Shown in pieces: positions 7,867 to 35,087 of a DNA stretch of 64,000 nt (position 1 is its first letter; every line of letters begins with the position of its first letter). The DNA is taken from assembly GCA_016432325.1 (NCBI GenBank), contig CP066684.1, positions 32,001 to 96,000 on the forward strand, in the 5' to 3' direction. The position numbers and the translations under genes were made by a program. This DNA comes from Candidatus Aenigmatarchaeota archaeon. Lineage in GTDB: Archaea > Aenigmatarchaeota > Aenigmatarchaeia > PWEA01 > JACQIF01. The notes beneath the pieces were generated by a model. The model made no database searches, was not told where the DNA came from, and worked only from the letters and a program-made list of their open reading frames with translations.

Positions 7867-10356
7867 TCAGACCTTCTTCACAAACTTTCTTATGGTTGCT
7901 TGCGTGCCCATTCCCTTTAACTCTTCTTCTGTCACGCCCAGCACTTGCAGGACGCGCATTCCTGCAGGAACTATCTGGTTGTTTATGTAGTACTCGGCGT
8001 CTGTGCGCTCGACCGACGCGTCTTCGATAGGCTCGGCTCTCTGAGATATTGAACCCTTGCCCTCTGTTATAACATATACCACAATCATGCCCGGTCCATA
8101 TGGCCGCCCGCGCTCCTTTATCTTGCGCGCGGCGACCACGTGCGGGCCTATCTGTTTGTACTCTTCCAAGCGTTTGGTCAGCTGCTCGTGAATCGTGAGC
8201 TCCTTTATATCGACTTTCTTCTTGCGCACGCGTTCTACGACGCTCTTCATGTACGCGATCGCGCCTTCCTTGTCCTTTTTCTTCAGAACGTAGACGAGCA
8301 CGTTTCGCTGCACTTCCTTCGCCAGTTCGCACCAGTCGCGTCGCACAGTTTCGAGGCCGCGTATGGTAAGCGCGCCTTTAGAGTCTATAAGCGCGTAGCG
8401 TTTCTTGGCCGTGCCGCGCTCGGAAAGCTTTGCTTTCCGGCGTGCCGAAGCGGCCTTGCCGTTTCGTGCATAGCCTGCGCCTTTGGGAATGAAGACGCCG
8501 CGCTCGTAGATTCCCTGAAGCTCGAGCTCCATTATTCCGGGCAACTTCTTGTTCATCTGCTCGATGAACTGCGCGGCTGACTTGCCGATGTCCTTGGCCT
8601 TATCTCTTTTGACGAAACACGAATCCGTGTCCGCATAGACGACGGTGAAACCGGCCTTCTCGGCCTCCCCCATCGTTAAACTAATGTAGTATCTTCCGAA
8701 GGCCGCGCTCGCTTCCGCGCATTCGTAGCAGTACCATTTCGCGCCTGTGTATGCTAACGCTCCGTAAGAGGCGTTGGCCACCATCTTCAGCGCCTGCTCC
8801 TCAAGTTTGAGGTCCTTGTACTCTTGGGAGGCAGGCTTTAGCTTTTGCAGGCGTTCCTTGACAGCGACGCGAGCCTCGATTAATCCACGAACAGCCGCGG
8901 AATAGAAACCCTGCTTCTTCTTGCAGAAGTGGCGCTTCATGCCGGGAACTTTGTATCCATCTGTTTTGCAGCAATCGCAGTCCAGCGTCTCCGGGGATAT
9001 GTTGTGCGACGCGATTATCGAAGGATACAGGGAGCGGAAGTCCATCACCGCAATCTTTTCTTGTATTCCGCCGAGAGGCTCCCTGACGAAGCCTCCCACG
9101 TATGCCGGGCGCGCCCGCCGAGCCTCTATCTCGTCGAACCTCGGCTGGTTGGGGCTTATGCGGCCTTCTGCGTGCGCGCGTCTCACCAAATGCCACTCGA
9201 CCAATTGCGAATAAGACATGCGCGAGACGTCGAAAGGCGGCTGTCCCACCACGCGCGCAATCCCAAGAACTTCCGGAAGGAATTCGTTGGCCAGGCGGAA
9301 CGTCAGCTCGGAGTCTTTCAGGTTGTATTCGGCGAACTTTCCCAGATTGCGTTCGCTTCTCCACGCCTCGACCATCTGCTCGTACGCCAGCTCTATCTTT
9401 CTGTCTCCCAGAATCTCCGCCGCGACTGCGTCGAGCGTCAAAGTTTCCGTGTCCAGATGGTATTTCAGAACGTTGTTCACCAGCGCGTAGAGGTCGAGAT
9501 GCACGCGGCCGTTGAGACGCGCTGACGAGACGCGCATGCGGCGTACGGACGTGACCTCTTCGCCGTCTCGCGAAAGCACGAGCTTCACTTTCAGTTCGTC
9601 GCACCGTTCGCGCAGCAGCGCAAAATCAAACTCGTCTCCGTTGTATGTAACGAGAACGTCGGGGTCTGCCTCGTTTATCGTTTCGATTAGTTTTTCGATC
9701 AGTTCCTTCTCGTTGGCCACGACCGTTACGTATGCGCCGTACCTAGCCTTCTTGTAAGTGAAGACGCGTTTCGTGCTGCCGTAGACAGACGCCATGATTA
9801 TGTGCGGTTTGCCTGCCTCTTCGTATGACTCAAGATCGAATGCGAGGACGCGCAGTTTGGGCGCGACTGTCTGTTTCGACTGCGTTATCTTCTCCGCCTT
9901 TACAACCACGCCGAACTTCCAGTCGCTCTTCACGTTTTCGCCGTCGACTTCATACCACGCGCCCGGCGCGAGCGAACGGTCTATCAGATACCGCCTGTAG
10001 AAATTTACCGCATACTCGTAACAGCCGTCGTGTCCTATTTCTTTGAAACTTTTTAATGCGTCGCGGAGGTTAGGCACGTCGGACGGCGTGGACGCGTACA
10101 CCTTGAGGACGTCTCTCTCTTCTGCGCCGAGCTTTCTTTTTACGACTTCGACGCGCGCCACTTTGGGTTCCTTTATCGCGGCGATTCTGTTCTGCAGTTC
10201 TTTCGTCATTGTTTTCGGAACCGCGTAGAGGTAAGGTTCGTATGTATCTAACACGCACACCGAGCGTCCGTTCGCGTCGACTCCGAACAGGCGCACCAGC
10301 GGTCTGCCGTTCTCAACCACGTAGTCGGCGTCCAGAAGGTAAAACGCGAGCTTCAT
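7867..10356 (-). CDS. polB: family B DNA polymerase (PolB3-like)
   Basis: Exo FDLES, YNGDEFD, YNLKD; polymerase DFRSLYPSII, KMVANASYG, YADTDS, KKRYA. Confidence 0.96.
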   Translation of the reverse strand: MKLAFYLLDADYVVENGRPLVRLFGVDANGRSVCVLDTYEPYLYAVPKTMTKELQNRIAAIKEPKVARVEVVKRKLGAEERDVLKVYASTPSDVPNLRDALKSFKEIGHDGCYEYAVNFYRRYLIDRSLAPGAWYEVDGENVKSDWKFGVVVKAEKITQSKQTVAPKLRVLAFDLESYEEAGKPHIIMASVYGSTKRVFTYKKARYGAYVTVVANEKELIEKLIETINEADPDVLVTYNGDEFDFALLRERCDELKVKLVLSRDGEEVTSVRRMRVSSARLNGRVHLDLYALVNNVLKYHLDTETLTLDAVAAEILGDRKIELAYEQMVEAWRSERNLGKFAEYNLKDSELTFRLANEFLPEVLGIARVVGQPPFDVSRMSYSQLVEWHLVRRAHAEGRISPNQPRFDEIEARRARPAYVGGFVREPLGGIQEKIAVMDFRSLYPSIIASHNISPETLDCDCCKTDGYKVPGMKRHFCKKKQGFYSAAVRGLIEARVAVKERLQKLKPASQEYKDLKLEEQALKMVANASYGALAYTGAKWYCYECAEASAAFGRYYISLTMGEAEKAGFTVVYADTDSCFVKRDKAKDIGKSAAQFIEQMNKKLPGIMELELQGIYERGVFIPKGAGYARNGKAASARRKAKLSERGTAKKRYALIDSKGALTIRGLETVRRDWCELAKEVQRNVLVYVLKKKDKEGAIAYMKSVVERVRKKKVDIKELTIHEQLTKRLEEYKQIGPHVVAARKIKERGRPYGPGMIVVYVITEGKGSISQRAEPIEDASVERTDAEYYINNQIVPAGMRVLQVLGVTEEELKGMGTQATIRKFVKKV
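8421..8470. repeat. in-frame double-hairpin insert in polB
   Basis: CGGAAAGC-ttt-GCTTTCCG then CGAAGCGGC-ctt-GCCGTTTCG; encodes extra basic peptide before KKRYA. Confidence 0.6.
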
Positions 10357-19576: not shown

Positions 19577-20002
19577 ATGGAGAACGTCCAGATCAGAGAT
19601 TACACGGACGCGGATTACAACCAAGTAAAACAAATTCTGATAGAAGGAAATCTCTTTGATGAAACTCTGGACAGCAGAGACAACCTCCGGAAGAAAATAG
19701 AGCGGGATCCGGCCTCCATTATAGTCGCGGTGTTCGATAACCGTGTGATAGGCAACGCCTATATTGTAGAGGACGGATGGGCCCATTTCATATTTCGTCT
19801 GAGCGTCAGCAAAGAACACAGAAAGCGCGGTGTAGGCAAACTTCTGATGCAAGCCGCGGAGAAGAGGATGAAAGACAGAGGGACGCCGGAGGTTGGTCTC
19901 TTAGTTAGAAGCGACGACAACGAGTTAGTCGGCTACTACAAGAAACAGGGGTACACGCATTCCGAAAAGACCTTCAGGTTCATGTGGAAGAAGCTCTCTT
20001 AG
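19577..20002 (+). CDS. GNAT N-acetyltransferase
   Basis: RLSVSKEHRKRGVGKLLM, YYKKQGY. Confidence 0.9.
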   Translation: MENVQIRDYTDADYNQVKQILIEGNLFDETLDSRDNLRKKIERDPASIIVAVFDNRVIGNAYIVEDGWAHFIFRLSVSKEHRKRGVGKLLMQAAEKRMKDRGTPEVGLLVRSDDNELVGYYKKQGYTHSEKTFRFMWKKLS

Positions 20003-20621
20003 AAAGAATCCAGAACAGTACCATCGTCGCAGTCACGCTTTCTATCGCAATCGCGTTCAGGTACGGGCCTGCTATGAAGGGTATCGGATACGGAACCGTT
20101 CCTATTACGTAATCGAAAAAGTCGTTCAGAAGGAACCACGCCAGAACGAGCGCCGCGTGCTCTCGCTTGACGCGCCCTTTCCAGACGGAGAGCAGCACGA
20201 ACGCCTCGAGAACCATTCCCACGTGAAGCGCGATAAGCGCAGCGGAGAACGACGCCTTGAGAACGAAAAACGAAGGCCAGAACAGGAGAAGAACGAACAC
20301 GGACCACACGCCGACTTTGATGAGGTAAATCGACGTCAGGAGGTTCAGCGCGGGATGCTGGTATTTCTTGAACGCGTATAGGAAAAGGAATGTTGCGAAC
20401 AGGAAGACGGCGGTAGGCGAGTCGGGCACGAGCGGCAGAAGGTAGAACGGCGTCGCCATGAACTGTTCCCAATAATAGTAGATTCCGAAGGCGACGCCGA
20501 TGAGATTGATTACGATTAGGAGAAGAGCAAGCCTCCTATCCTTTGCGAATCTTCGAACGTCCCGCGTTCGAAGTTTTCGAACCGCGTTCGAAAGCATTGC
20601 GAAAAGCCGTTTCCACTGCAT
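19980..20621 (-). CDS. DUF1405 membrane protein
   Basis: INLIGVAFGIYYY..Q..VPDSP, KVGVW, NDFFDY. Confidence 0.85.
   Translation of the reverse strand: MQWKRLFAMLSNAVRKLRTRDVRRFAKDRRLALLLIVINLIGVAFGIYYYWEQFMATPFYLLPLVPDSPTAVFLFATFLFLYAFKKYQHPALNLLTSIYLIKVGVWSVFVLLLFWPSFFVLKASFSAALIALHVGMVLEAFVLLSVWKGRVKREHAALVLAWFLLNDFFDYVIGTVPYPIPFIAGPYLNAIAIESVTATMVLFWILSKRASST
20543..20603. repeat. in-frame double-hairpin insert with 7-bp flanking direct repeat
   Basis: TTGCGAA at 20543 and 20597 (54 nt apart) enclosing CTTCGAACGT-ccc-GCGTTCGAAG and TTTCGAAC-cgc-GTTCGAAA. Confidence 0.8.
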
Positions 20622-21098
20622 CTACTTCTTCCTCTTGATTCGCATCGGATTGCCGTGAGCGAACGCTCCTGCGGGCACGTCGCGGTCCACCAGAGTCATC
20701 GCCGAGACTGTCGCGTTATCGCCTATCGTCACGCCTGCGAGTATCGTGGCGTTCGCACCAACGAGGACGCGCTTTCCTATTTTCGTCGCGCCGCGCCTCC
20801 ATTCCTTCTGTAAAAACTCGTGGCTCAGGACAGTAGCGTTGTATCCGATTATGGTCTCGTCTCCGATTTCAATCAGTTCCGGGAAGAATATGTCGAAAGA
20901 CGCGTCAAGAGCGACGCGCACGTGGCGGCCGAGCCTGATGCCGATAAGGCGGTAGAGAACGTTCTTAACCGTCAGAGGCGCGCCCCTCGCCAGCTTCATC
21001 AGGACCATGTTCTTCGTCACAGAAAAAGGATTGCGCGCGCCCATCCAGTAGTAGAGACTGTTGTGTTCTCCGACAGGGAAGCGTTCGAGACGGCGCAT
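20622..21098 (-). CDS. hexapeptide-repeat (left-handed beta-helix) acyltransferase
   Basis: FPELIEIGDETIIGYNATVLSHE, IGKRVLVGANATILAGVTIGD, GNP. Confidence 0.88.
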   Translation of the reverse strand: MRRLERFPVGEHNSLYYWMGARNPFSVTKNMVLMKLARGAPLTVKNVLYRLIGIRLGRHVRVALDASFDIFFPELIEIGDETIIGYNATVLSHEFLQKEWRRGATKIGKRVLVGANATILAGVTIGDNATVSAMTLVDRDVPAGAFAHGNPMRIKRKK

Positions 21099-21213
21099 GG
21101 AACGTAATTGTTTCGACCTTCCTTATAGCCTTTATATAGCTTCCGTCCCGATTCCAGTACGCCCGGCGCTGACACCAGACGCGTGACGGACGAGCTGGGC
21201 AAGGTGATATGAA

Positions 21214-21651
21214 ATGGCATTTAGAACGGTAGTTTCTACGAAAGACGGAAAAGCATTCCAAAAGGAAGTCGAGGCGCCTTCTCTCGTCGGATTGAAGATA
21301 GGCGAAAAGGTCGACGGTTCGCTCGTGGGACTGAACGGCTACACGCTTGAGATTACGGGCGGCAGCGACAAGGAAGGCTTCCCGATGCGGCGCGACCTGC
21401 CCGGTCTCGCCCGAAAGAAGATTCTTCTGACAGGAGGCAGCGGATACAACGCGCCGCAGAGCGGCGTGCGCAAGCGCAAGTCCGTCAGAGGAAACACCGT
21501 GTCCGAACTTATAATACAGGTGAATCTCAAGGTCATTACGGCAGGCGAGAAGCCCGTGCACGAGCTTTGGGGAATAACGCCAAAACCACCCAAGGAAAAG
21601 TGGAAAGCGCCGGAAGGAGAAGCCAAGCCGGCGCCGGAAGAGAAGACGTGA
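21214..21651 (+). CDS. rps6e: 30S ribosomal protein eS6
   Basis: LEITGGSDKEGFPMR, RKRKSVRGN, QVNLKV. Confidence 0.96.
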   Translation: MAFRTVVSTKDGKAFQKEVEAPSLVGLKIGEKVDGSLVGLNGYTLEITGGSDKEGFPMRRDLPGLARKKILLTGGSGYNAPQSGVRKRKSVRGNTVSELIIQVNLKVITAGEKPVHELWGITPKPPKEKWKAPEGEAKPAPEEKT

Positions 21652-21652
21652 G

Positions 21653-22900
21653 GTGGGCCCTTTCACGGACAAAACCTCTCTGGATTCGCGTTTCGTTCCA
21701 GAAGTCAACATCGGTCTGGTCGGCCACGTCGACCACGGAAAGACGACGCTCGTCGAGGCGCTCACCGGCAAGTGGACAGACACGCATTCGGAAGAACAGA
21801 AGAGAGGCATAACGATACGTCTCGGTTATGCGGACGTCACTTTTTACAAATGTTCGAAGGACGGCCAGTGGTGCAACGGCGCGAAATGCCCTACGTGCTT
21901 CGGAGACGCGGAACCTGTGCGCACCGTGTCGTTCGTGGACGCTCCCGGACACAGCACCCTGATGGCCACGGTTCTTTCAGGCGCTTCCATAATGGACGGA
22001 GCGTTGCTCCTTGTATCGGCGAGCGAGAAATGTCCTCAGCCGCAGACAGCCGAACATCTGATTGCACTGGACATCGTTGGAATCAGGAACGTCATCATCG
22101 TGCAGAACAAGATTGACTCTGTCGATGAAAAACGCGTGCGCGAGAGCTACGAAGAAATAAAAAAGTTCGTCAAAGGGACTGTCGCGGAAAACGCGCCTGT
22201 GATCCCAATTTCGGCTCTGCAGAGAATAAACATAGACGCGCTCATCGAGACTATACAGGAAAAGATTGCGACTCCTTCGAGGGATCCGAAGAAAGAGCCC
22301 AAGATGTACGTCGCGCGTTCCTTCGACATCAACAAACCCGGTACGTCATACGACAAGCTGAACGGCGGCGTGCTCGGCGGTTCCATCGTTCAGGGAATCT
22401 TGAACGTCGCAGACGAAATAGAGATAAGGCCGGGATGGGAGAAGGGAGGCAAATGGATGTCGCTGCGTACGACCGTGGCCGGACTTCAGAAGGTCGGGAA
22501 GAATGTGGACGAGGCGGGCCCGGGCGGCTTGCTCGGAATTTCGACAAAACTCGATCCGTTCCTGACGAAAGCAGACTCTCTCGCCGGCCACGTAGTCGGA
22601 CTGCCCGGAAAGCTCCCGCCGGTTCACACGAAGCTGCTGCTTGACGTGCATCTGCTGGAGAAGATGGTCGAGACGAGCGAGCGCGTGAAGCCCATAAACA
22701 CCAACGAGCCCCTGATGATGACCTGCGCCGTCGCGAAGACCGCTGGCGTCGTGACGTCGGCGCGCAAGGAAGGCAGGGAGGTCGAGATCGTTCTGAAACT
22801 GCCGATATGCGCGGATTACGGCGACCGCGTCGCCATTTCGCGCCTGCACCAGAATCGCTGGCGTCTTATAGGACACGGAATCATAAAGCGTGCTACTTGA
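21653..22900 (+). CDS. eif2g: translation initiation factor aIF2 gamma (non-ATG start)
   Basis: PEVNIGLVGHVDHGKTT, RGITIRLGY, DAPGH, NKID, RWRLIG. Confidence 0.97.
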   Translation: MGPFTDKTSLDSRFVPEVNIGLVGHVDHGKTTLVEALTGKWTDTHSEEQKRGITIRLGYADVTFYKCSKDGQWCNGAKCPTCFGDAEPVRTVSFVDAPGHSTLMATVLSGASIMDGALLLVSASEKCPQPQTAEHLIALDIVGIRNVIIVQNKIDSVDEKRVRESYEEIKKFVKGTVAENAPVIPISALQRINIDALIETIQEKIATPSRDPKKEPKMYVARSFDINKPGTSYDKLNGGVLGGSIVQGILNVADEIEIRPGWEKGGKWMSLRTTVAGLQKVGKNVDEAGPGGLLGISTKLDPFLTKADSLAGHVVGLPGKLPPVHTKLLLDVHLLEKMVETSERVKPINTNEPLMMTCAVAKTAGVVTSARKEGREVEIVLKLPICADYGDRVAISRLHQNRWRLIGHGIIKRAT

Positions 22901-23519
22901 TGCTGAAATTCTTCACTCCCTTTGCGTTCTTCAGCTTCCCGGGGAGCGCGCGTATCTCTTCGCTGCTGCCGCTCGACATGAACGTTGCCGTGTACTCGCC
23001 GCCCTTCACGCGGAAGGACGACTCCATGTAGACGCTCTTCTTCGGGAGCATGCGCCTCACGCGTTCTATGGTGCCGGCCCCGGACGCCGTGACCGTAATC
23101 ATCTTCGCGTAGCGGCCGAAGCCGATGCGCTCGAAGTAGGCGTCTATCACCATCACAACGGCTATGAAAAAGTAGAGAAGAAGCCCTTCGGCGAACATTC
23201 CGGCGCCCATCGAGACGCCGAAGACGGCGGACGCCCATATGGAAGCCGCGGTGGTGAAACCGAAGACCTTGTCTTGGTAGCGCAGCAGGGAGCCTGCGCC
23301 GAGGAAGCCTATTCCGGTTATGATACCTCCGACCACTATTACCGGGCTGCCGCCCAGTTCTGTAGCGACCACGGTGAGCACAGAGCATCCGGTCGCAACG
23401 AGCGCGAACGTCCCGAAGCCGACCGGCTTCTTGCGTATCTGTCTCTCCAGACCGAACATGAGGGAGAGCAGAAACGTCAAACCGACGCGCAGCAGTACCT
23501 CGTAGAACTCAAGCGGCAT
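22893..23519 (-). CDS. MgtC/SapB family membrane protein
   Basis: GLERQ..KPVGFGTF, GIGFLGAG, GFTTAASIW. Confidence 0.9.
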   Translation of the reverse strand: MPLEFYEVLLRVGLTFLLSLMFGLERQIRKKPVGFGTFALVATGCSVLTVVATELGGSPVIVVGGIITGIGFLGAGSLLRYQDKVFGFTTAASIWASAVFGVSMGAGMFAEGLLLYFFIAVVMVIDAYFERIGFGRYAKMITVTASGAGTIERVRRMLPKKSVYMESSFRVKGGEYTATFMSSGSSEEIRALPGKLKNAKGVKNFSIK

Positions 23520-23565
23520 GTTTAGACGTAACTCTGCATATTAAAATAGCCTTTCTACTATCTTC

Positions 23566-24969
23566 ATGAACCCGAGTCTTCAGGGAGTTATAACAGACGT
23601 TCTGCGCGAGGTCGTTCCCTCGCAGGAGGAGAAGGACGCTATACGCCGCCTGCAGGACAAGCTTCTTACAAGGGCGTACGCAGTTGTGAAGCAGCGGTAT
23701 TCCATAGAGCCGGTCTTCACAGGTTCCATAGCAAAGGGCACGTGGATGGCCGGCGCCAAAGACATAGACCTGTTCCTGATGTTCCACGAGCGCGTGCCGC
23801 GGGACGAGCTGGAACGCACGGGCCTCGACGTCGCCAAACAGATTGTGCAGGACATGGGAGGCCGCTGGGAGATCGCTTACGCGGAACACCCGTATCTGCG
23901 CGCTCAGATAGAGGGCCACAAAGTCGATATCGTACCTGCCTACGACGTGAAAGACGCCTCGAAGATAAAATCTGCGGTTGACCGCACGCCGCATCACGTT
24001 CGCTACATCCAGAGCGCGTTAGATAAGAATCTCCTCAACGAGGTGCGCCTCCTGAAGAAGTTCTGCGTCGGAGCAGGCGTCTACGGCTCTGACCTGAAGA
24101 CAGAAGGCTTCTCGGGCTACCTGTGCGAACTGCTGGTCGTCGAATACGGAACGTTCGAAGACGTTCTTCGTGCTGTCGTGCAGTGGAGGCCCGGAACAAT
24201 CATAGACGTCGAGGAGCATCACGCGGAGGCTTCCCTGAAGAAGAAGTTCCCGCACGATCCGCTCGTCGTGATAGATCCAGTAGACCCGAACAGGAACGTC
24301 GCCGCTGTCCTGTCGTTGGAAAACTTCCTGGTGTTTATACGCCGCGCGCGAGAGTTTTTGCAGGAGCCCAAGTTCTCGGCGTTCTTCCGTTTGCCTGTGA
24401 TGGCACCATCGATGGAAGAGTTGCAGAGGCATCTGGACGAGCGCCAGACGCGTTTCGTTTTCATCCGTTTCAGCACGCCCGACGTGCTCGACGACGTGCT
24501 CTGGCCGCAGCTTCGCAAATGCACGGAACGCGTCCGCACGCTTCTGGAGGAGAACGAGTTCGAGGTCCTGCGCACGGGAATCTGGAGTAGCGACGTGGCG
24601 ACCGTGCTCGTGATAGAACTGCTCGTGGATGAACTGCCTGCGATACAGAAGCGCCGCGGCCCGTCGGCCTTTGACGCCGCCAGCTCGAAGAGCTTCCTCG
24701 ATCACTATCGCGGCTACAACGTTTTTCTTGAGGACGGCTTCTGGGCCGTTGAATTCAAGCGCAAGAACCGCAACGCGATGGAACTCCTGCGGGCGTTCTT
24801 GGGTGAAGGCGAGTCCGAATTGAGGGCGAAGGGCGTTCCGTCATATGTAGCGGCGGCGCTTCACGAGGACGTCGAGCTTGCGACAGGAGAACACGTCGCG
24901 CGTCTGCTCAGGCGTTTCGACAGCTTGCGGGCGTTCATGTACAACTACTTCCACAGGAATTTGGTGTAA
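23566..24969 (+). CDS. cca: archaeal class I CCA-adding enzyme
   Basis: GSIAKGTW..DIDLF, YAEHPY, SAVDRTP, GFSGYLCELL, DPVDPNRNVAA. Confidence 0.96.
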   Translation: MNPSLQGVITDVLREVVPSQEEKDAIRRLQDKLLTRAYAVVKQRYSIEPVFTGSIAKGTWMAGAKDIDLFLMFHERVPRDELERTGLDVAKQIVQDMGGRWEIAYAEHPYLRAQIEGHKVDIVPAYDVKDASKIKSAVDRTPHHVRYIQSALDKNLLNEVRLLKKFCVGAGVYGSDLKTEGFSGYLCELLVVEYGTFEDVLRAVVQWRPGTIIDVEEHHAEASLKKKFPHDPLVVIDPVDPNRNVAAVLSLENFLVFIRRAREFLQEPKFSAFFRLPVMAPSMEELQRHLDERQTRFVFIRFSTPDVLDDVLWPQLRKCTERVRTLLEENEFEVLRTGIWSSDVATVLVIELLVDELPAIQKRRGPSAFDAASSKSFLDHYRGYNVFLEDGFWAVEFKRKNRNAMELLRAFLGEGESELRAKGVPSYVAAALHEDVELATGEHVARLLRRFDSLRAFMYNYFHRNLV

Positions 24970-24972
24970 CTC

Positions 24973-25911
24973 ATGGTCTACCAATCCATCGCGCTTCTGC
25001 TCGGCGGTCTCGTCATAATGTTCTTCTCCAGCAAGTGGGCGATACGCTACGCCATAGGAATCTCCGAGTCGCTTGCGCTGGGCCGCTTCGCCGTCGGCTT
25101 CATTTTCATAGCCATGACGACGACGTTCCCGGAACTGGTCGTTTCCATATCGTCCACGCTTCACGGCGAACCCGGGCTCGCCGTAGGAAATGCCCTCGGT
25201 TCGGTTTTAGCCAATCTGACGCTGATACTTGGAGTGGCCGTGCTGGTGGGTGGAACAATGAGACTCAGGAAGGATCATATAGGAGACCAGATAGAGGTGC
25301 TCTTCGTCTCGGCCCTCGTCTCAATTTTCCTCCTGCAGGCAGGCTCCCTGAGCATCCTCCAGGGCCTCATACTCCTCGTCCTCTTCGCCTTCTTCGTCAA
25401 CAAAGTGCGCCGCGGAGGGATTCCGATGAAGGCCAAGCCGGACATACTCGTTTTCTTCGGCCACTTCGCGCGGTTCATAGCGTCTGTCGCCGTCCTCCTG
25501 ATAAGCAGCGAAATGATAGTTCGCGGCTCGATTCAGATGGTTGAGGCGTACGCTTTCGCGCCGGAGTTCATAGGCCTCACGATAATCGCGGTAGGCACGT
25601 CGATGCCCGAGCTTGCCGTAGGCATACGCGCCATTCATTCGAAGGAGTATGCCCTCGCTCTGGGCGACCTTGTAGGCGCTTCGGTGATCGACCTCACTCT
25701 AATCATGGGAATAGTGGCGCTCCTCAATCCAGTGCCGGTCAACCTCGCGCACGTGAGCGGAGTCATGCCGTTCATACTGGCGGCTATATTGGCAAACTGG
25801 TATTTCCTCAGCAAGAGAATCAACATCACAAGGAAGATTGCCTTCCTGCTGGTCTGTCTTTTCTTGCTATTTCTCCTCGAGCAGATAGGAATCTTAACGC
25901 TCTTCGGATGA
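24973..25911 (+). CDS. Ca2+/cation antiporter (CaCA, YrbG-like)
   Basis: Alpha repeats TTFPEL..GNALGS and GTSMPEL..GDLVGA. Confidence 0.9.
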   Translation: MVYQSIALLLGGLVIMFFSSKWAIRYAIGISESLALGRFAVGFIFIAMTTTFPELVVSISSTLHGEPGLAVGNALGSVLANLTLILGVAVLVGGTMRLRKDHIGDQIEVLFVSALVSIFLLQAGSLSILQGLILLVLFAFFVNKVRRGGIPMKAKPDILVFFGHFARFIASVAVLLISSEMIVRGSIQMVEAYAFAPEFIGLTIIAVGTSMPELAVGIRAIHSKEYALALGDLVGASVIDLTLIMGIVALLNPVPVNLAHVSGVMPFILAAILANWYFLSKRINITRKIAFLLVCLFLLFLLEQIGILTLFG

Positions 25912-25915
25912 TACC

Positions 25916-26887
25916 ATGCGCATATTAATCGAGACGACGGGTTTGCACAAGGAGATGCCTTCTGCGGAAGTTCTGGCCGTGGGCGGCGGCATCCCCATAG
26001 AGGAAAGAGGCAAGCTGTTTGTCGTTGACGTTACGCAGTGGGAGCCTTTGAAGAGACTGGGTTACTCGGCGCGAATAATGGAGTTCTTGGGGAAGTCCGC
26101 GTTCAACGAGCTGCCGTTCGCTCCTCAACACGTCGTGGAAGGACGTTACGCCATACGTGCGCTCAACGCCGGTTTCAAGGGAAACACGGAGGCCTTGCGG
26201 GAGTCCCTGTACGAACTGGTATGGTCGTCTTTGTCCGCGCCGCAAGTGGATTTGAAGAACCCGCAAACGGTTCTGTACGCGTACATGACGCCGAAGGAAG
26301 TCTGGTGGGGCCGCCTTCTTCACGAGTTCGGTGCCGATGCGTTCGCACAGCGCGACTCGAAACACCGCGTGTTCAAACGCGCGGTTGAGATGCAGCCTCG
26401 CAAGGCGCGTTGTTTAGTCAACCTGTCCCGCGTGCAGCCCGGCGAACGAATGCTCGACCCGTTCTGCGGTACGGGCTCCTTTTTAATCGAGGCCGCTTCC
26501 ATGGGCGTCCAGGCGTACGGCGGCGACGTGGACGGAGAGATGGTCTCCGGAGCCAAGCGTAACGCCGCGCACCTCGGTCTCGCCGCTGACGTCCGCCACA
26601 TCGATGGCCGCCTGACCAGCGGCTGGGGAGTGAAGTTCGACGCGATAGTGACGGACCTGCCTTACGGCCGCTCTGCCTCTCTCAAAAAGGTAAAGATGGC
26701 CGAACTCTACAAAGATTTTCTCGAGTCGGCGTGGGGCGTTCTCGGACCCGACAAGTACGCGGTCGTGCTGGCGCCTAAAGGAAAACTGAAGGTGCCGCCG
26801 AAGCTGTTCGCAAAGGTAAGCGCCTTCGACGAGTATGTGCACGGTTCCCTGACTCGACAGATATTCGTCCTGCATAAGAAGGACTAG
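25916..26887 (+). CDS. trm11: tRNA (guanine-10 N2)-methyltransferase (THUMP plus MTase)
   Basis: VDLKNP THUMP segment, LDPFCGTG, DLPYG, VHGSLTR. Confidence 0.85.
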   Translation: MRILIETTGLHKEMPSAEVLAVGGGIPIEERGKLFVVDVTQWEPLKRLGYSARIMEFLGKSAFNELPFAPQHVVEGRYAIRALNAGFKGNTEALRESLYELVWSSLSAPQVDLKNPQTVLYAYMTPKEVWWGRLLHEFGADAFAQRDSKHRVFKRAVEMQPRKARCLVNLSRVQPGERMLDPFCGTGSFLIEAASMGVQAYGGDVDGEMVSGAKRNAAHLGLAADVRHIDGRLTSGWGVKFDAIVTDLPYGRSASLKKVKMAELYKDFLESAWGVLGPDKYAVVLAPKGKLKVPPKLFAKVSAFDEYVHGSLTRQIFVLHKKD

Positions 26888-27315
26888 TGCGTCGCTTCGT
26901 ACAGAACCACGGCCAGCGCGGCGACTTCCGAATGCGGCTGTTTCGTCACGGACACGTTCGCGTCGGCCAGCCCGTAGATTTCCCCCGGGACCTTCTCGCC
27001 GCCTACGACGATTAAGACGTTCTTCGCCTTCTTTATTTCGGCAATCTTCGTTTCAAACGGCTCTCCGTACATCGTCAGATGCACCTTCAAACCGTCAAAC
27101 CGTTCAACAACATTCCTCCAATCCTTTGCGTACGTCACGGAGAACTCGCCGCCGAACCCTTCTGACACCTTGCGCACCGATGACATCATCTTCTCGTCCT
27201 TGAGACCCGAGTAGACGACGGACGACGCGCCGAACGCTCGCGCCACGAGGCCGACGTGCGTGCTTATGCGCGAGTCACGGCCCGGACGGTGGCCGAGTCG
27301 CAAGACGGTTATCAT
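26884..27315 (-). CDS. trm56: tRNA (cytidine-56 2'-O)-methyltransferase
   Basis: VLRLGHR..RD.RISTHVGLVARAFGA, HLTMYG, VGGEKVP, QPHSEVAALA; 143 aa. Confidence 0.93.
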   Translation of the reverse strand: MITVLRLGHRPGRDSRISTHVGLVARAFGASSVVYSGLKDEKMMSSVRKVSEGFGGEFSVTYAKDWRNVVERFDGLKVHLTMYGEPFETKIAEIKKAKNVLIVVGGEKVPGEIYGLADANVSVTKQPHSEVAALAVVLYEATH

Positions 27316-27913
27316 TCGATCTAGCCTCCTTGTTTCTATAAACGACAAGAACGTCCTCCTCTGTTCCTCTGGCTCTTCGCGCCTTGTCGAACGGGCCTCT
27401 ACATATGGCTTCAAAAGGTTCCCCGTCATGAACAAACACATTCTCTACGTCATAACCTACCACGGTGACCGCGTGGCCAACGAATGTGCCTCGCGGAAGT
27501 ACACTGAGCATATCTGCGTCAATAGCCACGATGGGGACACTGTCCCGATTCGCGAAAGAAAGCACCTCGTCGAGACTCATTATTCTCTTTTCAATCTCTA
27601 TTTTGCGATCTTTCGCTAACCTAGCGAACTTCTGAATATCATGTGGCGGAAGTTCCTTATACCATTCCAAATCCAGATCATCGCGATTGAATTCGGAGTA
27701 TTTAGAGAGCAATCTCGGCGTGAACCCCATCTCGGCCGCCGCTATAGCTAGGCCTATCGTGTTGGTCAATTCGTCCGGTCCCATCTCGCCCGCGTTTCTG
27801 ATATAATTCTCGCTTACAATCTTCCCGAAATAAGCAGCAACCATCCTTAGCGCGTTTGAACCGCAATTCGATCCTCGTTCGTAGAAGGGAATGCTTAGCT
27901 TCATAGAGACCAT
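27275..27913 (-). CDS. C39-like papain-fold peptidase
   Basis: NCGSNALRM (Cys), GHAVTVVGYD (His), VHDG (Asp). Confidence 0.8.
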   Translation of the reverse strand: MVSMKLSIPFYERGSNCGSNALRMVAAYFGKIVSENYIRNAGEMGPDELTNTIGLAIAAAEMGFTPRLLSKYSEFNRDDLDLEWYKELPPHDIQKFARLAKDRKIEIEKRIMSLDEVLSFANRDSVPIVAIDADMLSVLPRGTFVGHAVTVVGYDVENVFVHDGEPFEAICRGPFDKARRARGTEEDVLVVYRNKEARSNDNRLATRPPSGP

Positions 27914-28016
27914 TTAAAGGATGGAAGTAACGTATTTAAATGTCGCACGTGACCAATAGCATACCAAATCTTCAATAGGTTGGATGTAACCGGAAGATTA
28001 CGTCTTGGTGGGTCGC

Positions 28017-28340
28017 ATGTCGTCTAAAGCGCGGATTAAGCTGACGGGAAGGGATGTGCAGAAGCTCGACGAGCTCTGCAAGCAGATAAAGGACATCGCC
28101 GAGAAGTTTGGAGTTTCTGTCAAAGGCCCTGTTCCCATGCCAACAAAGCGCTTGCGCATTCCCGTTCTTAAAACTCCCAACGGTTCCGGTACGGGCCATG
28201 GCAATGCTACGTGGGACCACTGGGAGATGCGCATCCACAAGCGTCTGCTCGACGTCGGTGCGGACCAGCGCACGCTGCGATACATAATGAAAATAGAAAT
28301 CCCGGAAGACGTGAACATCCAGATACAGCTGATTGAGTAG
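28017..28340 (+). CDS. rps10: 30S ribosomal protein uS10
   Basis: KARIKL, GPVPMPTK, TWDHWEMRIHKRL; GGTG SD before ATG 28017. Confidence 0.96.
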   Translation: MSSKARIKLTGRDVQKLDELCKQIKDIAEKFGVSVKGPVPMPTKRLRIPVLKTPNGSGTGHGNATWDHWEMRIHKRLLDVGADQRTLRYIMKIEIPEDVNIQIQLIE

Positions 28341-28381
28341 CACGTAACGGCCTATTTAACGTTTCTTCTCCAAGACTGCGC

Positions 28382-28732
28382 ATGGGCGTCCAAGTCGAGT
28401 TCAACACCGCTCTCGGCCTGAGAAATATTTCTGAATTCAAAATCAGCAGGAGAGTTCTGGAAGAGTGCATACCCGAGAGACTCGGCGCCGGAGAGACGTA
28501 CGCGTTCCTGAAAAAAGGCCAGAGAAACTACGCGATAGGAGACGAAATTCCTCTGGTCGAAACAGAAGGCGATAACAAGATATCACGGCCCCTCGCGAGC
28601 GTAGTAATCGAAGAGGCTGCGCACTTCCTAATCGACGGGAGCGTCCATACGAAAGGCACGTACAGGGTCGTCTCTGTATTCGATCCGAAGGACCCGGCCG
28701 TCCATTTCGAGGGCGTGAAGCGCGTACGATAA
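28382..28732 (+). CDS. hypothetical protein, DUF2584-like
   Basis: MG.QVEFN..L, FLKKGQR.Y, EIPLVET, TKGTY pattern. Confidence 0.6.
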   Translation: MGVQVEFNTALGLRNISEFKISRRVLEECIPERLGAGETYAFLKKGQRNYAIGDEIPLVETEGDNKISRPLASVVIEEAAHFLIDGSVHTKGTYRVVSVFDPKDPAVHFEGVKRVR

Positions 28733-28784
28733 ACCTATTTAACATCTCGTTTTGCATCTCAGCCTGAGCTGGCTTTCAAAGAAC

Positions 28785-28969
28785 GCTGGGGTAGCCAAGC
28801 TTGGTTTACGGCGCCAGACTGGAAACCACACTTTTGCGAAAAGTGTGGGCAAAAACGACGAGCAAAAAACGGAAATCTGGTGGGCGCAAGCCCGCGCGAG
28901 TTCAAGCGCCTTTTTGCCGCGGCAAAAACCCGCGGGAAAACGGCCGAACGAATCTCGTCCCCAGCGCCA
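28785..28969 (+). tRNA. tRNA-Ser(GGA) with two introns (37/38 at 28825-28874; T-loop 58/59 at 28906-28951); CCA encoded
   Basis: GCTGGGG/CCCCAGC+GCCA, anticodon stem CCAGA/TCTGG with CT-GGA-A, variable arm GGGCGCAAGCCC; BHB-like GTTC-AAG / GAAC-GAA at the T-loop intron. Confidence 0.92.
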
Positions 28970-29053
28970 TTCAATATAACCGAGCGCTGGTACGAAACCG
29001 CAGTTTCGGCTTCCAGCGCCACGTATTTATCCTTTTGCGTGCGTACAGGAGAC

Positions 29054-29554
29054 ATGACGCAGCAGCTCATTTTAAAGAACAAGGAGACGCGTCTTATAGA
29101 CGCGCTGGTCCATAGAACGGCGTTTATCGGCGGAACAGAACGGGAAAATGATGTCAACACTGCGACCATGGCCTTTGCACGAGAGTACCATCCAGTGCTG
29201 AGGCAGCACTCCGAGGGGATTGCTCACCGGGTAGGCGGAGACCTTCTGGCCCACGTCGATAGAGAACAGCCCATGGACCTGTTCGGGATTCAGTACGAAG
29301 TCAAGACCAAAGGCGGCCTTCTGGGTTATCCGAAACGTATCTCCGAGTCATCCTTCAATTACTGGTGGAACCCGGAGGACGCCGGCGTCGTAGTAGTCTG
29401 CGCGTACACCCCGGAAGCGGTGAGGAGAATCGGTTTTGAGGGTCTCAAAGACATCGAGGCGGATTTCGGGAAGAAGTTCCCGAAGGCGTACAGTAGCCCG
29501 GTAATTAAATCCGCGTTAAGGGTGAGCACTCATTTCCGCAAGGCGCCGAAGTAG
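29054..29554 (+). CDS. hypothetical protein
   Basis: ATG with AGGAG SD downstream of the tRNA; the longer track ORF runs through the tRNA. Confidence 0.6.
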   Translation: MTQQLILKNKETRLIDALVHRTAFIGGTERENDVNTATMAFAREYHPVLRQHSEGIAHRVGGDLLAHVDREQPMDLFGIQYEVKTKGGLLGYPKRISESSFNYWWNPEDAGVVVVCAYTPEAVRRIGFEGLKDIEADFGKKFPKAYSSPVIKSALRVSTHFRKAPK

Positions 29555-29574
29555 CCTTTATATAGTTTGTTTTC

Positions 29575-29841
29575 TCACGAGAGGACGTCTCTCAACGCTT
29601 ACAGAACGTTGTAAACCTTCTGTAAAACCGTACAGCTTTCGTGCAAACGCGCGAAAGAATGCCGCTGGTCTTACAGCGCGCTGTAAGACAGCAAACGAAA
29701 GTTTGCTAATTCTACGTGACGAGCCCGAAAAAGGCGTTTAAATAGGCTTCGGACAAGGTAAACCCAGCAGAGTTTGCGGTTGCAAACTTGGTGATACGCC
29801 TTGATGGACCTATTTCAGGTCGTTAATAGGGTGAATAGAAA
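29575..29841 (+). ncRNA. candidate structured RNA or long 5' leader of the rpl3 operon
   Basis: TTTATATA box at 29557; at least 7 hairpins incl. 22-nt palindrome 29668-29689 and GAAA-tetraloop stem 29690-29707. Confidence 0.55.
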
Positions 29842-30825
29842 ATGCCGAAAGTACACAGACCACGCAGAGGTTCGCTCCAGTATTGGCCTCGCAAGAGAGC
29901 CGCACGCATCCATCCTAACGTTTCCATAGATTCTGCGAAAGTCACGGTCGAAGGCACTCGTCCTCTCGCTTTTGCGGCTTACAAGGCCGGCATGACCCAT
30001 CTCATCGCGGTCGACGCGGTGAAGGGGTCGCCGAGCTTCAACCAGCCCATCGCCGTGCCGGTCTCTGTTCTCGACGCCCCTCCTCTTCTCGTTCTCGGTT
30101 TCCGTTGTTACGCCGCCTCCGGACGCTCTTCTGTCGCATCGTTTGACGTCTATGCGGACGGCGTTCCGAAAGAACTGCGCGTCAGTCTCAAGTCGAAGCA
30201 CAAGGCGGCCGACGTGGAAAAGAACAAGAACGTCGACAACGTGAGGCTCATCGTATCCACGCAGCCGACGAAGAGCGGAATCGCGAAGAAGACCCCTGAA
30301 ATATTCGAAGTCGACATAGGAGGCAAACTCGGCGAAAAGATAAAGTACGCCAGCGAAAAGCTCGGCAAGGAGATAACGGTCGGCGAGGTTTTCAACGAGG
30401 GACAGTTCATCGACGTCACTGCGATAACGAAGGGCAAGGGTTTCCAGGGAGTTGTCAAGCGCTTCGGCATCCGCGTCCGCGGCCGCAAGGACGAGCAGGG
30501 CCACAGGAAGATAGGCATCCACGGCCCTGAGCGCATGGGACGCATACTCTACAGCGTTCCGATGGCAGGACAGCTTGGGTTCTTCAGGCGCACCGAACAC
30601 AACAAGCAGATATTCAGGATATCAAGCGACGGCTTCTCTCCGAAAGGCGGCTTCGTCGGCTACGGCGCGGTCCCCAAAACAATGATATTCCTCAAAGGCT
30701 CCATTCCGGGCTCCAAGAAGAGGCTAGTCGTTCTGCGCGCCCCTCTCAGGGCCTCATCGAAAGGATACCCGATCGCAATACAGGAAGTCAGCGTTGCGAG
30801 CCAGCAGGGCATGAAGACTCGGTGA
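29842..30825 (+). CDS. rpl3: 50S ribosomal protein uL3
   Basis: RPRRGSL..PRKRA, YKAGMTH, TKGKGFQGVVKRFG. Confidence 0.97.
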   Translation: MPKVHRPRRGSLQYWPRKRAARIHPNVSIDSAKVTVEGTRPLAFAAYKAGMTHLIAVDAVKGSPSFNQPIAVPVSVLDAPPLLVLGFRCYAASGRSSVASFDVYADGVPKELRVSLKSKHKAADVEKNKNVDNVRLIVSTQPTKSGIAKKTPEIFEVDIGGKLGEKIKYASEKLGKEITVGEVFNEGQFIDVTAITKGKGFQGVVKRFGIRVRGRKDEQGHRKIGIHGPERMGRILYSVPMAGQLGFFRRTEHNKQIFRISSDGFSPKGGFVGYGAVPKTMIFLKGSIPGSKKRLVVLRAPLRASSKGYPIAIQEVSVASQQGMKTR

Positions 30826-30829
30826 TTGA

Positions 30830-31630
30830 ATGGCGGATGTTCACGGACTCGACGGGAAGAAAACGGGCACGATCGAATTGCCCAAGGTCTTCCAGACGCC
30901 GTACAGGCCGGACCTGATAGCGCGCGCCGTGCTGGCGTACCAGTCCGCGCGCAGGCAGGCGTACGGCACGGACCCGAAGGCAGGCATGCGCTCAAGCGCC
31001 CACTACCACGGTTACAGGAAGTTCCGCCCTGAAGTTGTGATGATGAACAGGGAGATGGCCCGTCTGCCGCGCATCCACGGCGACGCGCCGGCGCACCTCG
31101 GAATGCGCGCGCGTCTCGTTTCAGGAGCAGTCGGCGGTCGCACGGTCCACGGCCCCCGCTCGGCGCGGATCTGGACACAGAAGCTGAACGTACGCGAGCG
31201 CATAGCCGCGATAAGGAGCGCGATAGCAGCCACAACGCGGGCCGACCTGGTGGCGGCGAGACGCCACGCATATACGGGCAGCGTTCCTCTGGTCGTTGCA
31301 GACGACATCCAGAACGTCAAGAAGACCAAGGAGCTCGTCAAGACTCTGCTCGCCTTGGGACTCGAAAAAGAAATAGAACGCACTTCGGAGAAGCGCGTGA
31401 GAGCCGGCCGCGGCAAGATGCGCGGCCGCAGGTACAAGGTCAGGAAGGGACCGTTGCTCGTCGTTTCAAAAGACGGCGGAATCGTCAAAGCCGCCGCAGG
31501 CGTGCTGGGCATGGACGTGGCTCACGTTCGCGGTCTTAACGCCGAGCTTCTGGCTCCGGGAACGCAGAGCGGACGATTGACCATCTGGAGCAAGTCGGCG
31601 GTCGAAGAGATTGGAAAAAAATACGCGTGA
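30830..31630 (+). CDS. rpl4: 50S ribosomal protein uL4
   Basis: RPDLIARAV, RAGRGKMRGRRY, LLAPG..GRLTIWS. Confidence 0.97.
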   Translation: MADVHGLDGKKTGTIELPKVFQTPYRPDLIARAVLAYQSARRQAYGTDPKAGMRSSAHYHGYRKFRPEVVMMNREMARLPRIHGDAPAHLGMRARLVSGAVGGRTVHGPRSARIWTQKLNVRERIAAIRSAIAATTRADLVAARRHAYTGSVPLVVADDIQNVKKTKELVKTLLALGLEKEIERTSEKRVRAGRGKMRGRRYKVRKGPLLVVSKDGGIVKAAAGVLGMDVAHVRGLNAELLAPGTQSGRLTIWSKSAVEEIGKKYA

Positions 31631-31635
31631 TTGTT

Positions 31636-32010
31636 ATGAGTGAAGAAAAGACGGTCAAGACGGCGACAAAAGCGGTAAAAAAGGCCGCTCCGAAGAAAGA
31701 CGCAAAGGTGAAACCGAAGGCCGGAGCGCGCACGGACGCCGTTCCCACGGTAGACCCGTGGACGATACTGCAGTATCCCCATCTGACAGAAAAAAGCCTC
31801 GGAATGGTCGACAGCAGGAATACGCTTGTGTTCGTCGTCGATCCGCGCGTGACGAAGCGACAGGTCAGGTGGGCAGTCGAGCGCGCATTCGGTGTGCGTG
31901 TCGTCTCGGTCAACACTCTGAACGACATGATGAACAGGAAGCGCGCGTTTGTCAAACTCGCCAAGGAGAACAGCGCGCTTGACATCGCGACAAGATTGGG
32001 AATGGTGTAG
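31636..32010 (+). CDS. rpl23: 50S ribosomal protein uL23 with Lys/Ala-rich N-terminal extension
   Basis: TEKS..NTLVFVVD..VNTL..KRAFVKL..ALDIATRLG. Confidence 0.95.
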   Translation: MSEEKTVKTATKAVKKAAPKKDAKVKPKAGARTDAVPTVDPWTILQYPHLTEKSLGMVDSRNTLVFVVDPRVTKRQVRWAVERAFGVRVVSVNTLNDMMNRKRAFVKLAKENSALDIATRLGMV

Positions 32011-32013
32011 TAA

Positions 32014-32697
32014 ATGGGAAAGGTCATTCGTGCACAGAAGAAGGGCAAGTCGCCGAAGTACTGGGCGCCTTCGCACAGGCATCCGGGCCTGCCCAAGTAC
32101 ATCGAAGGAACGCTCGTCGTGAAAGACATAATCCACGGGGTCGCGCGCAACACGCCTCTGCTCAGGGTTCAGGGCGCGAACGCGTCGGCGCTGATGATAG
32201 CGTCGGAAGGCGTCGCGACAGGGGACACCGTCTCTGTAGGCGCAGGGGAGACCAAGCCCGGGAACGTCCTTCCTCTCGCGCAGATACCGGAAGGCGTTCC
32301 GATATTCAACATCGAGGCCCAGCCAGGCGACAACGGCGCTTACGCGCGCAGCGGCGGTTCATTCGCATTCATAGTTTCCAAGAGCGCGGGGGTTGTCGTT
32401 CGTCTCCCGTCCAAGAAGACACGCACGTTCAATCCGTCGTGCCGCGCAACGATCGGAACGCCGGCAGGAGCCGGACGCAAGGACAAGCCCTTCGTGAGCG
32501 CAGGCGCGCGCTTCCACTATATGAAGGCCCGCGGCAAGGCGTACCCTGTCGTGAGCGGCGACAAGATGAACGCGGTGGACCACCCGTTCGGCGGCCGAAC
32601 CAAGAAGGGAATCCCGAAGACCGTGTCGCGCAACGCGCCTCCTGGCGCGAAGGTCGGCTCGATAGCCGCGAGCCGCACGGGACGCAGGAAGAAGTGA
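32014..32697 (+). CDS. rpl2: 50S ribosomal protein uL2
   Basis: MGKVIRAQ, MNAVDHPFGG, APPGAKVGSIAASRTG. Confidence 0.97.
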   Translation: MGKVIRAQKKGKSPKYWAPSHRHPGLPKYIEGTLVVKDIIHGVARNTPLLRVQGANASALMIASEGVATGDTVSVGAGETKPGNVLPLAQIPEGVPIFNIEAQPGDNGAYARSGGSFAFIVSKSAGVVVRLPSKKTRTFNPSCRATIGTPAGAGRKDKPFVSAGARFHYMKARGKAYPVVSGDKMNAVDHPFGGRTKKGIPKTVSRNAPPGAKVGSIAASRTGRRKK

Positions 32698-32703
32698 TGA
32701 GAG

Positions 32704-32898
32704 ATGCCAATTTACACAGTTAAGATAACCGCGGAGTGCGAGACGGTATACGAGTTGCGCGACGAAGAAATTGATATCGTTGGCGGTTGGGGCATGGACG
32801 CCGAATCTGCCGAGAGTCTCGTAAAGAGGTTGGGGAAGGTTGCGCGAGAGGGGCTGCCCGGGACTACAGGTCCGACAGACATGCATTACGAAATATGA
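32704..32898 (+). CDS. hypothetical 64-aa protein inserted between rpl2 and rps19
   Basis: ATG ORF exactly filling the gap. Confidence 0.6.
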   Translation: MPIYTVKITAECETVYELRDEEIDIVGGWGMDAESAESLVKRLGKVAREGLPGTTGPTDMHYEI

Positions 32899-32909
32899 GT
32901 TGACGACGA

Positions 32910-33287
32910 ATGGCAAAAGAATATCTCTATCGCGGGCGCACGGTTGAAGATTTGAAGAAGCTGAGCCTCGAGGAGTTTGTGACGCTGCTGCCGTCCCGCG
33001 CGCGACGCTCTTTAAAGCGCGGCCTGTCCGACGACCAGAAAACTCTGCTCAAGGACATTCGCGCAAACGCGAGCGTGAAAACGCACGTGCGCGATCTCGT
33101 GATACTGCCCGAGATGGTCGGGAAGAAAATATCGGTGTACAACGGGAAGGAGTTCGTCTCATTCGACGTGATACCGCAGATGATAGGCTTCAGGCTCGGG
33201 GATTTCGCGATAACGATAAAGGAAGTCAAACACTCTTCGCCGGGCATGGGCGCCACGCGTTCGTCCAAGTTCGTGCCGTTGAAGTAA
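32910..33287 (+). CDS. rps19: 30S ribosomal protein uS19
   Basis: KTHVRDLVILPEMVG, GATRSSKFVPLK. Confidence 0.97.
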   Translation: MAKEYLYRGRTVEDLKKLSLEEFVTLLPSRARRSLKRGLSDDQKTLLKDIRANASVKTHVRDLVILPEMVGKKISVYNGKEFVSFDVIPQMIGFRLGDFAITIKEVKHSSPGMGATRSSKFVPLK

Positions 33288-33288
33288 G

Positions 33289-33855: not shown

Positions 33856-33865
33856 GTGTGACGAT

Positions 33866-34801: not shown

Positions 34802-35037
34802 TGAGCATCATACGCGCGAAGGAGATGAGGTCGATGGAAGAGCGGGAACTTCGCAAGCGCGTCGACGAGTTGAGACTCGAGCTTACGAAATCGCAGGCTC
34901 AGGTGGCCATAGGCGGCGCGCCGCCGAATCCGGGCAGGATAGGGGAGATAAAGAGAACAATCGCACGCGCGTTGACGATAAGGAGGGAGCGCGCATCAAA
35001 GTCACAATCGCAGAAACCCGCAAAACGAGGTGCATGA
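34801..35037 (+). CDS. rpl29: 50S ribosomal protein uL29
   Basis: MSIIRAKEMR..ELRLEL..NPGRIGEIKRTIARALT. Confidence 0.95.
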   Translation: MSIIRAKEMRSMEERELRKRVDELRLELTKSQAQVAIGGAPPNPGRIGEIKRTIARALTIRRERASKSQSQKPAKRGA

Positions 35038-35081: not shown

Positions 35082-35087
35082 CAAGAA

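Follow-up and report, generated by a model that had tools for sequence, protein, structure and literature searches.

The DUF1405 locus

We analysed a window of 64 kb (the whole stretch of DNA under study) from the genome of a groundwater member of Candidatus Aenigmarchaeota (DPANN). This genome consists of a single 875-kb contig and is referred to as G000, and the sister MAG from the same genus as G001. The gene of interest codes for a DUF1405 membrane protein (Table 1). The start codon of this gene directly adjoins the stop codon of a hexapeptide-transferase gene upstream, a junction that is homologous in G001 and in locus L029, which lies on a Logan contig (SRR27109257) of a third lineage. 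Public gene models let the protein begin at Met9 (P0001, 205 aa), while the start supported by the orthologues is located upstream, at position 20621.

Within the 5' part of the gene, four TTCGAAC half-sites (at 20552, 20566, 20576 and 20586, in the order +,-,+,-) build two adjacent hairpins with perfect stems. At a distance of 1-3 nt from the hairpins, the heptamer TTGCGAA is present on both sides as a perfect direct repeat (7/7) with a start-to-start spacing of 54 nt. Repeats and hairpins had been described in the initial annotation, and both were found where it had placed them; its statement that deletion of 54 nt yields an in-frame N-terminus is correct as well. The two hairpins have outer arms that are inverted with respect to each other, as follows trivially from the fact that both are palindromes built on one half-site. 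As RNA, the element has a predicted folding energy of -19.4 kcal/mol (z = -2.9 versus shuffles).

The motif TTCGAAC occurs 22 times in the window, and 8 of these sites are confined to two clusters of 41-44 nt, one in DUF1405 and the other at 37949-37992 in the gene of ribosomal protein uL5. Therefore, the clustering of these sites is not due to chance. The TTGCGAA repeat is a real feature, too, since only 0.4% of random coding positions are flanked by a 7-nt direct repeat; where it comes from is another matter, which is treated below.

Table 1. Coordinates of the host genes, repeats and twin-hairpin inserts. Positions are those of the window unless a G001 locus is given.
Feature	Position	Strand	Description
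PolB insert	8416-8469	-	54 nt = 18 codons; imperfect twin hairpin, in frame; ORF 7867-10356 (family-B DNA polymerase)
DUF1405 membrane protein (host gene)	19980-20621	-	213 aa; Pfam PF07187, E = 3e-32
Left TTGCGAA	20543-20549		On the gene strand F25-A26 plus first base of K27, downstream of the insert
DUF1405 insert proper	20550-20594	-	45 nt = 15 codons, residues 10-24; boundaries +/-2 nt
Hairpin A	20551-20573		9-bp perfect stem, 5-nt loop
Hairpin B	20575-20593		8-bp perfect stem, 3-nt loop
Right TTGCGAA	20597-20603		On the gene strand F7-A8 plus first base of M9, upstream of the insert
Ribosomal protein uL5 gene	37912-38478	+	Pfam Ribosomal_L5, Ribosomal_L5_C
uL5 insert	37947-37995	+	48 nt = 16 codons (+/-1 nt); empty site in sister L005
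G001-private insert	L060:2948-2995		48 nt
G001-private insert	L065:2996-3043		48 nt; in PolB, at another site than the PolB insert of G000
G001-private insert	L114:2777-2812		36 nt

Orthologues without the inserts

The segment encoded by the DUF1405 insert is absent from five orthologues that represent at least four lineages, namely those of G001, P0003 (from L029), P0005, P0006 and P0007, and the synteny is conserved; in G001, the hexapeptide transferase is found upstream, with S6e and eIF2-gamma beyond. For uL5, a clean gap of 16 residues was observed in all N-termini examined from 25 relative genomes and in the six closest of 384 database homologues, and the uL5 sequence of G001 (L005) reads straight across the insert site. 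Since the orthologues and relatives of both proteins lack these segments, insertion in the G000 lineage is the parsimonious direction of change for DUF1405 as well as for uL5. In a collection of 5.8 billion proteins, no DUF1405 homologue with an identity between 69% and 100% was found.

A look-up of public sequencing runs found the locus in four DNA runs of a single groundwater study and in no RNA run. The filled allele is present in all four, as seen when their contigs were aligned to positions 20000-38500 of the window. No contig joint skipping the DUF1405 or the uL5 insert was detected in these four runs, in which contigs cannot show rare alleles. As four independent run assemblies agree, it is unlikely that the hairpins are an assembly artefact. 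The empty-site alleles that the initial annotation had proposed to look for were recovered from the sister MAG and the third lineage, but not from the run contigs. Its proposal that the element is mobile is supported by the fact that five DUF1405 orthologues and all uL5 relatives examined are without it, that its modules recur at other loci and that each of the sister species has private copies; mobile would then be understood in terms of comparative presence and absence and not of an observed event.

Origin of the flanking TTGCGAA repeats

The initial annotation had explained the heptamers as a target-site duplication of 7 bp. In this model, a 47-nt element would have been inserted after a staggered cut, and the empty allele would code for a single Phe-Ala pair and would be 18 residues shorter. 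In its favour, the repeat is perfect, lies very close to the hairpins and is of a type that is rare at random coding positions. However, the insert-free orthologues already carry the codons for F-A-x-F-A. P0003 reads M-D-W-K-E-L-F-A-T-F-A-N where G000 has M-Q-W-K-R-L-F-A-M-(15 aa)-F-A-K, and its DNA at the site is TTC GCG ACC TTT GCC, so that the right repeat exists in a synonymous form in insert-free orthologues. P0006 reads L-F-E-L-F-A-K, P0007 and P0005 show the equivalent F..F/W pattern, and all three have the same head of 9-10 residues ahead of the second F-A as P0003. Against P0003, P0006 and P0007, the insert appears as one clean gap.

The lengths of the N-termini point in the same direction. 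In the orthologues, F-A (or F..F-A) units occur twice with a spacing of 9 nt, and the N-terminus is as long as that of G000 after subtraction of 45 nt rather than of 54 nt. When a gap of 45 nt is assumed, the head in front of the LLI-x-x-NL motif comprises 18 residues in G000, the same number as in four orthologues, and 19 in G001 and P0005. A gap of 54 nt leaves a head of 15 residues, 3 shorter than in 4 of 5 orthologues, and an additional deletion of three codons would be needed. Nor is the identity of the two heptamers demanding: with the codon usage of G000, the two Phe-Ala pairs are expected to use identical codons with a probability of about 0.24, the seventh base being fixed by Met and Lys. 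Since the insert-free P0003 reads L-F-A-T-F-A-N and the heads of P0006, P0007 and P0005 match, both TTGCGAA copies are, judging from these alignments, ancestral codons, and the insert is one indel of 15 codons (45 nt) and not 47 nt plus 7.

At six other coding-sequence copies, which have a usable empty site in the sister genome and junctions defined at codon level, no duplication of at least 4 nt was found either; these include the copies in uL5, Lhr and PolB and those private to G001. The hexamer TGCGC(G) flanking the uL5 insert derives from conserved M-R-x-V-R codons and is already present in the empty site of the sister, and the PolB junction shows only a microhomology of 5 nt, which is also part of the terminal motif of that sub-type. 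Two observations had been named beforehand as speaking against the initial interpretation, an alignable segment of 18 residues in the orthologues and a lack of flanking repeats at other copies. The former was not made, as the orthologues are without the segment, while the latter is what we found. An apparent pattern at DUF1405, uL5 and CysRS (3 of 5, against 4.9% expected per site) was discarded as a post-hoc coincidence, as nothing comparable was seen at PolB, Lhr and the three G001-private inserts.

Two results are in favour of a duplicating insertion. Genome-wide, direct repeats of at least 6 nt that hug hairpin clusters are in weak excess (4 observed versus 0.7 expected), two of the four being those of DUF1405 and uL5 explained above. 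In addition, beyond an 84-nt hairpin array located behind a tRNA gene (G000:C1:830053-830156), there is a 10-nt copy of the tRNA 3' end, which consists of the acceptor arm and CCA. Unlike the coding-sequence copies, this tRNA-adjacent copy has a genuine flanking duplication of 10 nt. Some members of the family may thus insert with target duplication, which is not a general property, and for the DUF1405 copy we regard a duplicating insertion as decidedly unlikely.

Copies in uL5 and in other coding sequences

The uL5 insert lies 17.4 kb away from the DUF1405 copy and is a near-twin of it. A 10-mer and a 9-mer, which the initial annotation had listed as common to the two, were found in both elements. 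The uL5 element folds as an autonomous twin hairpin with -21.7 kcal/mol (z about -3). As seen from their matches to a further copy at G000:522063, both inserts have the same genomic orientation as this copy though their host genes are on opposite strands, and they are therefore oppositely oriented relative to their host genes; the orientation relative to transcription is free. In public gene models, uL5 starts at Met6 (P0016, 183 aa), and the start supported by orthologues is again upstream, at 37912.

Further inserts were identified in other genes (Table 1). The one in the family-B polymerase gene (Pfam DNA_pol_B) is private to G000 and is identical at 32 of 36 positions to a copy at G000:529503. 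A 48-nt in-frame twin-hairpin insert in the gene of an Lhr-type helicase is also private to G000. The gene for CysRS harbours an in-frame copy of 45 nt, for which gene identity and frame placement were confirmed and a sister orthologue was not found. When all G000 ORFs were aligned to the G001 ORFs and all indels of at least 8 residues were listed irrespective of hairpins, the strongly folding indels were twin-hairpin inserts.

The lengths of all eight coding-sequence copies are multiples of three, and all are free of stops in the frame of the host gene. Among genes with a sister orthologue, none was split or frame-broken by a hairpin copy; only shadow ORFs and single-stop differences were encountered, none of them at a hairpin. 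The 45 nt of the DUF1405 insert are open in six of six frames because the self-complementary half-site is free of stops on both strands and in every frame, and the uL5 copy is open in five of six.

A separate observation concerns positions 1871-1921 of the window (G000:33871-33921), where an insert of 17 residues with one 8-bp hairpin is found in G000 only. The frame in question has 168 codons, is 70% identical to a G001 frame and may be a real gene or a shadow frame.

A repeat family of narrow distribution

Using structural pattern scans (stem of at least 6 bp, loop of 3-7 nt), 78-80 clusters of adjacent perfect hairpins were counted in G000, versus 7-16 in Markov shuffles, and 35 in the whole of G001 (540 kb). 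Several sub-types of the family share the plan hairpin, linker of 2-6 nt, hairpin, and differ in their stems and loops. The TTCGRAC hairpin motif was obtained 19 times in G000 (1 with the reversed-pattern control) and 12 times in the sister, where the control gave 0. A further relative has it once and 38 others have none, so that within the set of 41 related genomes this half-site hairpin is restricted to the genus. A search of 185,579 species genomes with the strict twin pattern gave a match in the sister MAG and in no other.

Individual copies resemble each other beyond their stems. The DUF1405 copy shares 27 of 30 nt with G000:522063, in a match that spans hairpin A and the linker and reaches into the first part of hairpin B, and 20 of 20 nt with the sister locus L105:2139-2158, comprising the linker and most of hairpin B together with its loop. 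In the uL5 copy, hairpin A agrees with G000:522065 at 21 of 22 nt.

These matches bear on the possibility that the hairpins were born locally, by fold-back or template-switch errors during replication of TTCG-rich sequence, and were then expanded. The stems differ between copies and yet stay perfect, which a local origin would account for, but which is not what one expects of a selfish repeat in simple decay. It would also fit that the flanking TTGCGAA resembles a half-site with one extra base, and that no transposase was found (see below). Nevertheless, whole modules, down to the unpaired loops and the linker, are found again at loci unrelated to each other and in G001, and the lengths of the inserts cluster tightly at 45-48 nt, which makes a local origin very unlikely. 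A related idea, that the stems are templated from the target sequence, was dropped after no convincing similarity was seen by eye.

Retention of the hairpins for a function in the host, be it to slow or gate translation after the starts of DUF1405 and uL5 or to serve as a protein-binding site, was also considered. Both copies in the window lie within the first 30 codons of their genes and form stable stems of -19 to -22 kcal/mol, which counts in its favour. On the other hand, the hairpins are missing from the sister species and from every other relative, other copies are located mid-gene (PolB, CysRS, Lhr) or between genes, the two copies face opposite directions relative to their host genes, and no Rfam family was matched, either in the whole window at the gathering score or in 20450-20700 at E values up to 10. 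We consider a host function very improbable.

The twin hairpins of the third lineage (L029) belong to the wider family. One of them, at L029:8973-9016, lies in a C-terminal extension of 24 residues in the S6e protein of this Aenigmarchaeota contig (SRR27109257); neither G000 nor G001 has this extension. Another two are intergenic (2440-2484 and 4266-4311 of the same locus).

Probable translation of the inserts

Initiation of DUF1405 at Met1, with a start that abuts the upstream stop as in the orthologues, means that ribosomes would have to read through the insert. Downstream of the insert, no in-frame ATG, GTG or TTG start precedes the first membrane helix. The 15 residues of the insert have a net charge of about +5 and precede TM1. 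In the AlphaFold model, they are part of an N-terminal tail of lower confidence, with block means of 59-64 versus 81-94 for the next helices. The situation in uL5 is comparable, with a pLDDT below 50 for residues 1-24, which cover most of the insert (13-28) and are situated directly ahead of the confident first strand. Most likely, the DUF1405 insert is transcribed and translated through, and it would add a strongly basic stretch of 15 residues to the cytoplasmic tail before TM1.

Alternatively, the insert could resemble an intron and be cut out of the mRNA, with the archaeal splicing endonuclease as one candidate enzyme, in which case the protein would remain unchanged. It counts for this explanation that bulge-helix-bulge splicing of protein-coding mRNA is known in archaea (cbf5). 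An intron-rich tRNA-like gene, which contains several small hairpins, is seen in the window at about 28780-28975. However, splicing requires neither a length that is a multiple of three nor the absence of stops, features that all eight coding copies possess, and no frame-breaking copy exists among the genes with a sister orthologue. In the MFE and centroid folds of the insert with its flanks, inspection by eye revealed no bulge-helix-bulge intron fold but two independent hairpins, with no helix between the exons and no 3-nt bulges at the junctions. Both the rule of stop-free multiples of three and the lack of bulge-helix-bulge geometry speak against RNA removal, and we consider an intron unlikely.

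Possible insertion mechanism and source

No match to the transposase profiles PF01797 (Y1/IS200), PF07282 (TnpB), PF01548 (IS110), PF01609 (DDE_Tnp_1) and PF00665 (rve) was obtained in the 875-kb genome; the search covered these five families, and positive-control genomes were matched. Concerning a viral source, a 17-mer across the linker between the hairpins matched 7 IMG/VR contigs, a count within chance, and none of them has a twin hairpin.

Taken together, we propose with a probability of roughly 0.7 that positions 20550-20594 are one copy of a genus-restricted selfish twin-hairpin repeat of about 45-54 nt, similar in kind to the Rickettsia palindromic elements (RPEs), which is tolerated and translated through. 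The insertion itself, the membership in the family, the absence of a real target duplication and the compatibility with the reading frame are shown by the comparisons above. The copy was inserted into the 5' part of the DUF1405 coding sequence after G000 and the sister species had diverged, and it landed between two pre-existing Phe-Ala codon pairs with no detectable target duplication. It would have survived by being a multiple of three, stop-free and placed in a floppy N-terminal tail that makes few structural demands, where its presence would be neutral, and the copies in uL5, PolB, CysRS and the Lhr helicase would be tolerated likewise. Loops and linkers common to different copies argue against local birth of palindromes and suggest that the repeat spreads through the copying of pre-formed modules, probably by a copy-and-paste process acting on the hairpins. 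The enzyme responsible would not be encoded by any recognisable transposase gene of G000.

A more far-reaching version of this proposal is that the twin hairpins are a previously undescribed kind of archaeal mobile micro-DNA (45-54 nt), which a host-encoded or hairpin-specific nuclease/ligase would insert, with neither transposase nor target duplication, even into essential genes. We offer it tentatively and hold it to be possible rather than probable. If it were true, a source from which archaea gain introns and protein loops would be visible at the DNA level.

Comparison with known repeat systems

To our knowledge, selfish palindromes inserted in frame are a textbook phenomenon only for Rickettsia. 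RPEs (Ogata et al. 2000, summarised in PMC10969869) are dispersed palindromes in the reduced genome of a host-dependent microbe, with many copies in frame in unrelated housekeeping genes, compatible with the protein fold and with no transposase known to be associated, all of which resembles the elements studied here. The RPEs of that account differ in that they measure about 100-150 bp, form ten families and occur in a bacterial genus, whereas the twin hairpins are 45-54 nt long, have variable stems and loops and come from a DPANN archaeon; a relationship in sequence would not be expected. The family consists of dispersed palindromic repeats in many copies, and at DUF1405, uL5, PolB and Lhr it shows in-frame insertion with insert-free orthologues, in this case sister empty sites. 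With inserts of 45-54 nt in an archaeon, it falls outside the RPE size class, so that the elements work like RPEs but are not members of them.

The double-hairpin elements (DHEs) of Allomyces mitochondria (Paquin, Laforest and Lang 2000; cited in PMC7218506) are likewise very short and made of two adjacent hairpins, and their mobility was deduced from optional presence between close relatives; they belong to a fungal organelle genome and are unrelated in sequence. They are reported to reside in coding as well as in non-coding DNA. The twin hairpins resemble DHEs in architecture and are not members of that family. Prokaryotic MITEs are also small, multicopy, non-autonomous and taxon-specific elements (PMC10969869, PMC11602168), and they have inverted-repeat ends, to which the outer arms of the twin hairpins may correspond. 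Their size range is 50-800 bp (PMC11602168), which puts the twin hairpins at its bottom or below. In contrast to MITEs, the twin hairpins have no target-site duplication at verified empty alleles and no parent transposase; neither such a duplication nor a cognate autonomous transposase from the five families searched was found.

REP/REPIN sequences, which depend on RAYT/Y1 enzymes, and the palindromes derived from IS200/IS605 are hairpin repeats that often occur as doublets and lack a target duplication. They differ from our family by being extragenic, by having conserved stems and by co-occurring with a Y1 gene, whereas in G000 there is no Y1 or TnpB and copies are found inside genes. No account of elements like these, be it from Aenigmarchaeota or from another DPANN lineage, was retrieved by full-text literature searches.

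If the repeat is indeed RPE-like, the phenomenon would not be a bacterial oddity but would have a much smaller analogue in a DPANN archaeon with a genome of ~0.9 Mb. Rapid turnover in uL5, PolB, CysRS, the Lhr helicase and a membrane protein would amount to a natural experiment in which essential proteins gain surface loops. The absence of both a recognisable transposase and a target duplication points to an unfamiliar insertion mechanism. On the practical side, the repeat inserts explain the odd start codons called in public models for DUF1405 (Met9) and uL5 (Met6).

Hairpins and assembly breaks

ARAGORN predicted no tRNA in the whole window. At the tRNA-like gene mentioned above, breaks or branch points are present in the contigs of each of the four public runs, with joints and loose ends at 28874-28951. 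In the fragmented G001 assembly, hairpin clusters accumulate close to contig ends, no more than a few hundred bases away (for example L040:167-636, L073:253-291, L070:177-219 and L116:223-264), which suggests that the repeats break short-read assemblies.
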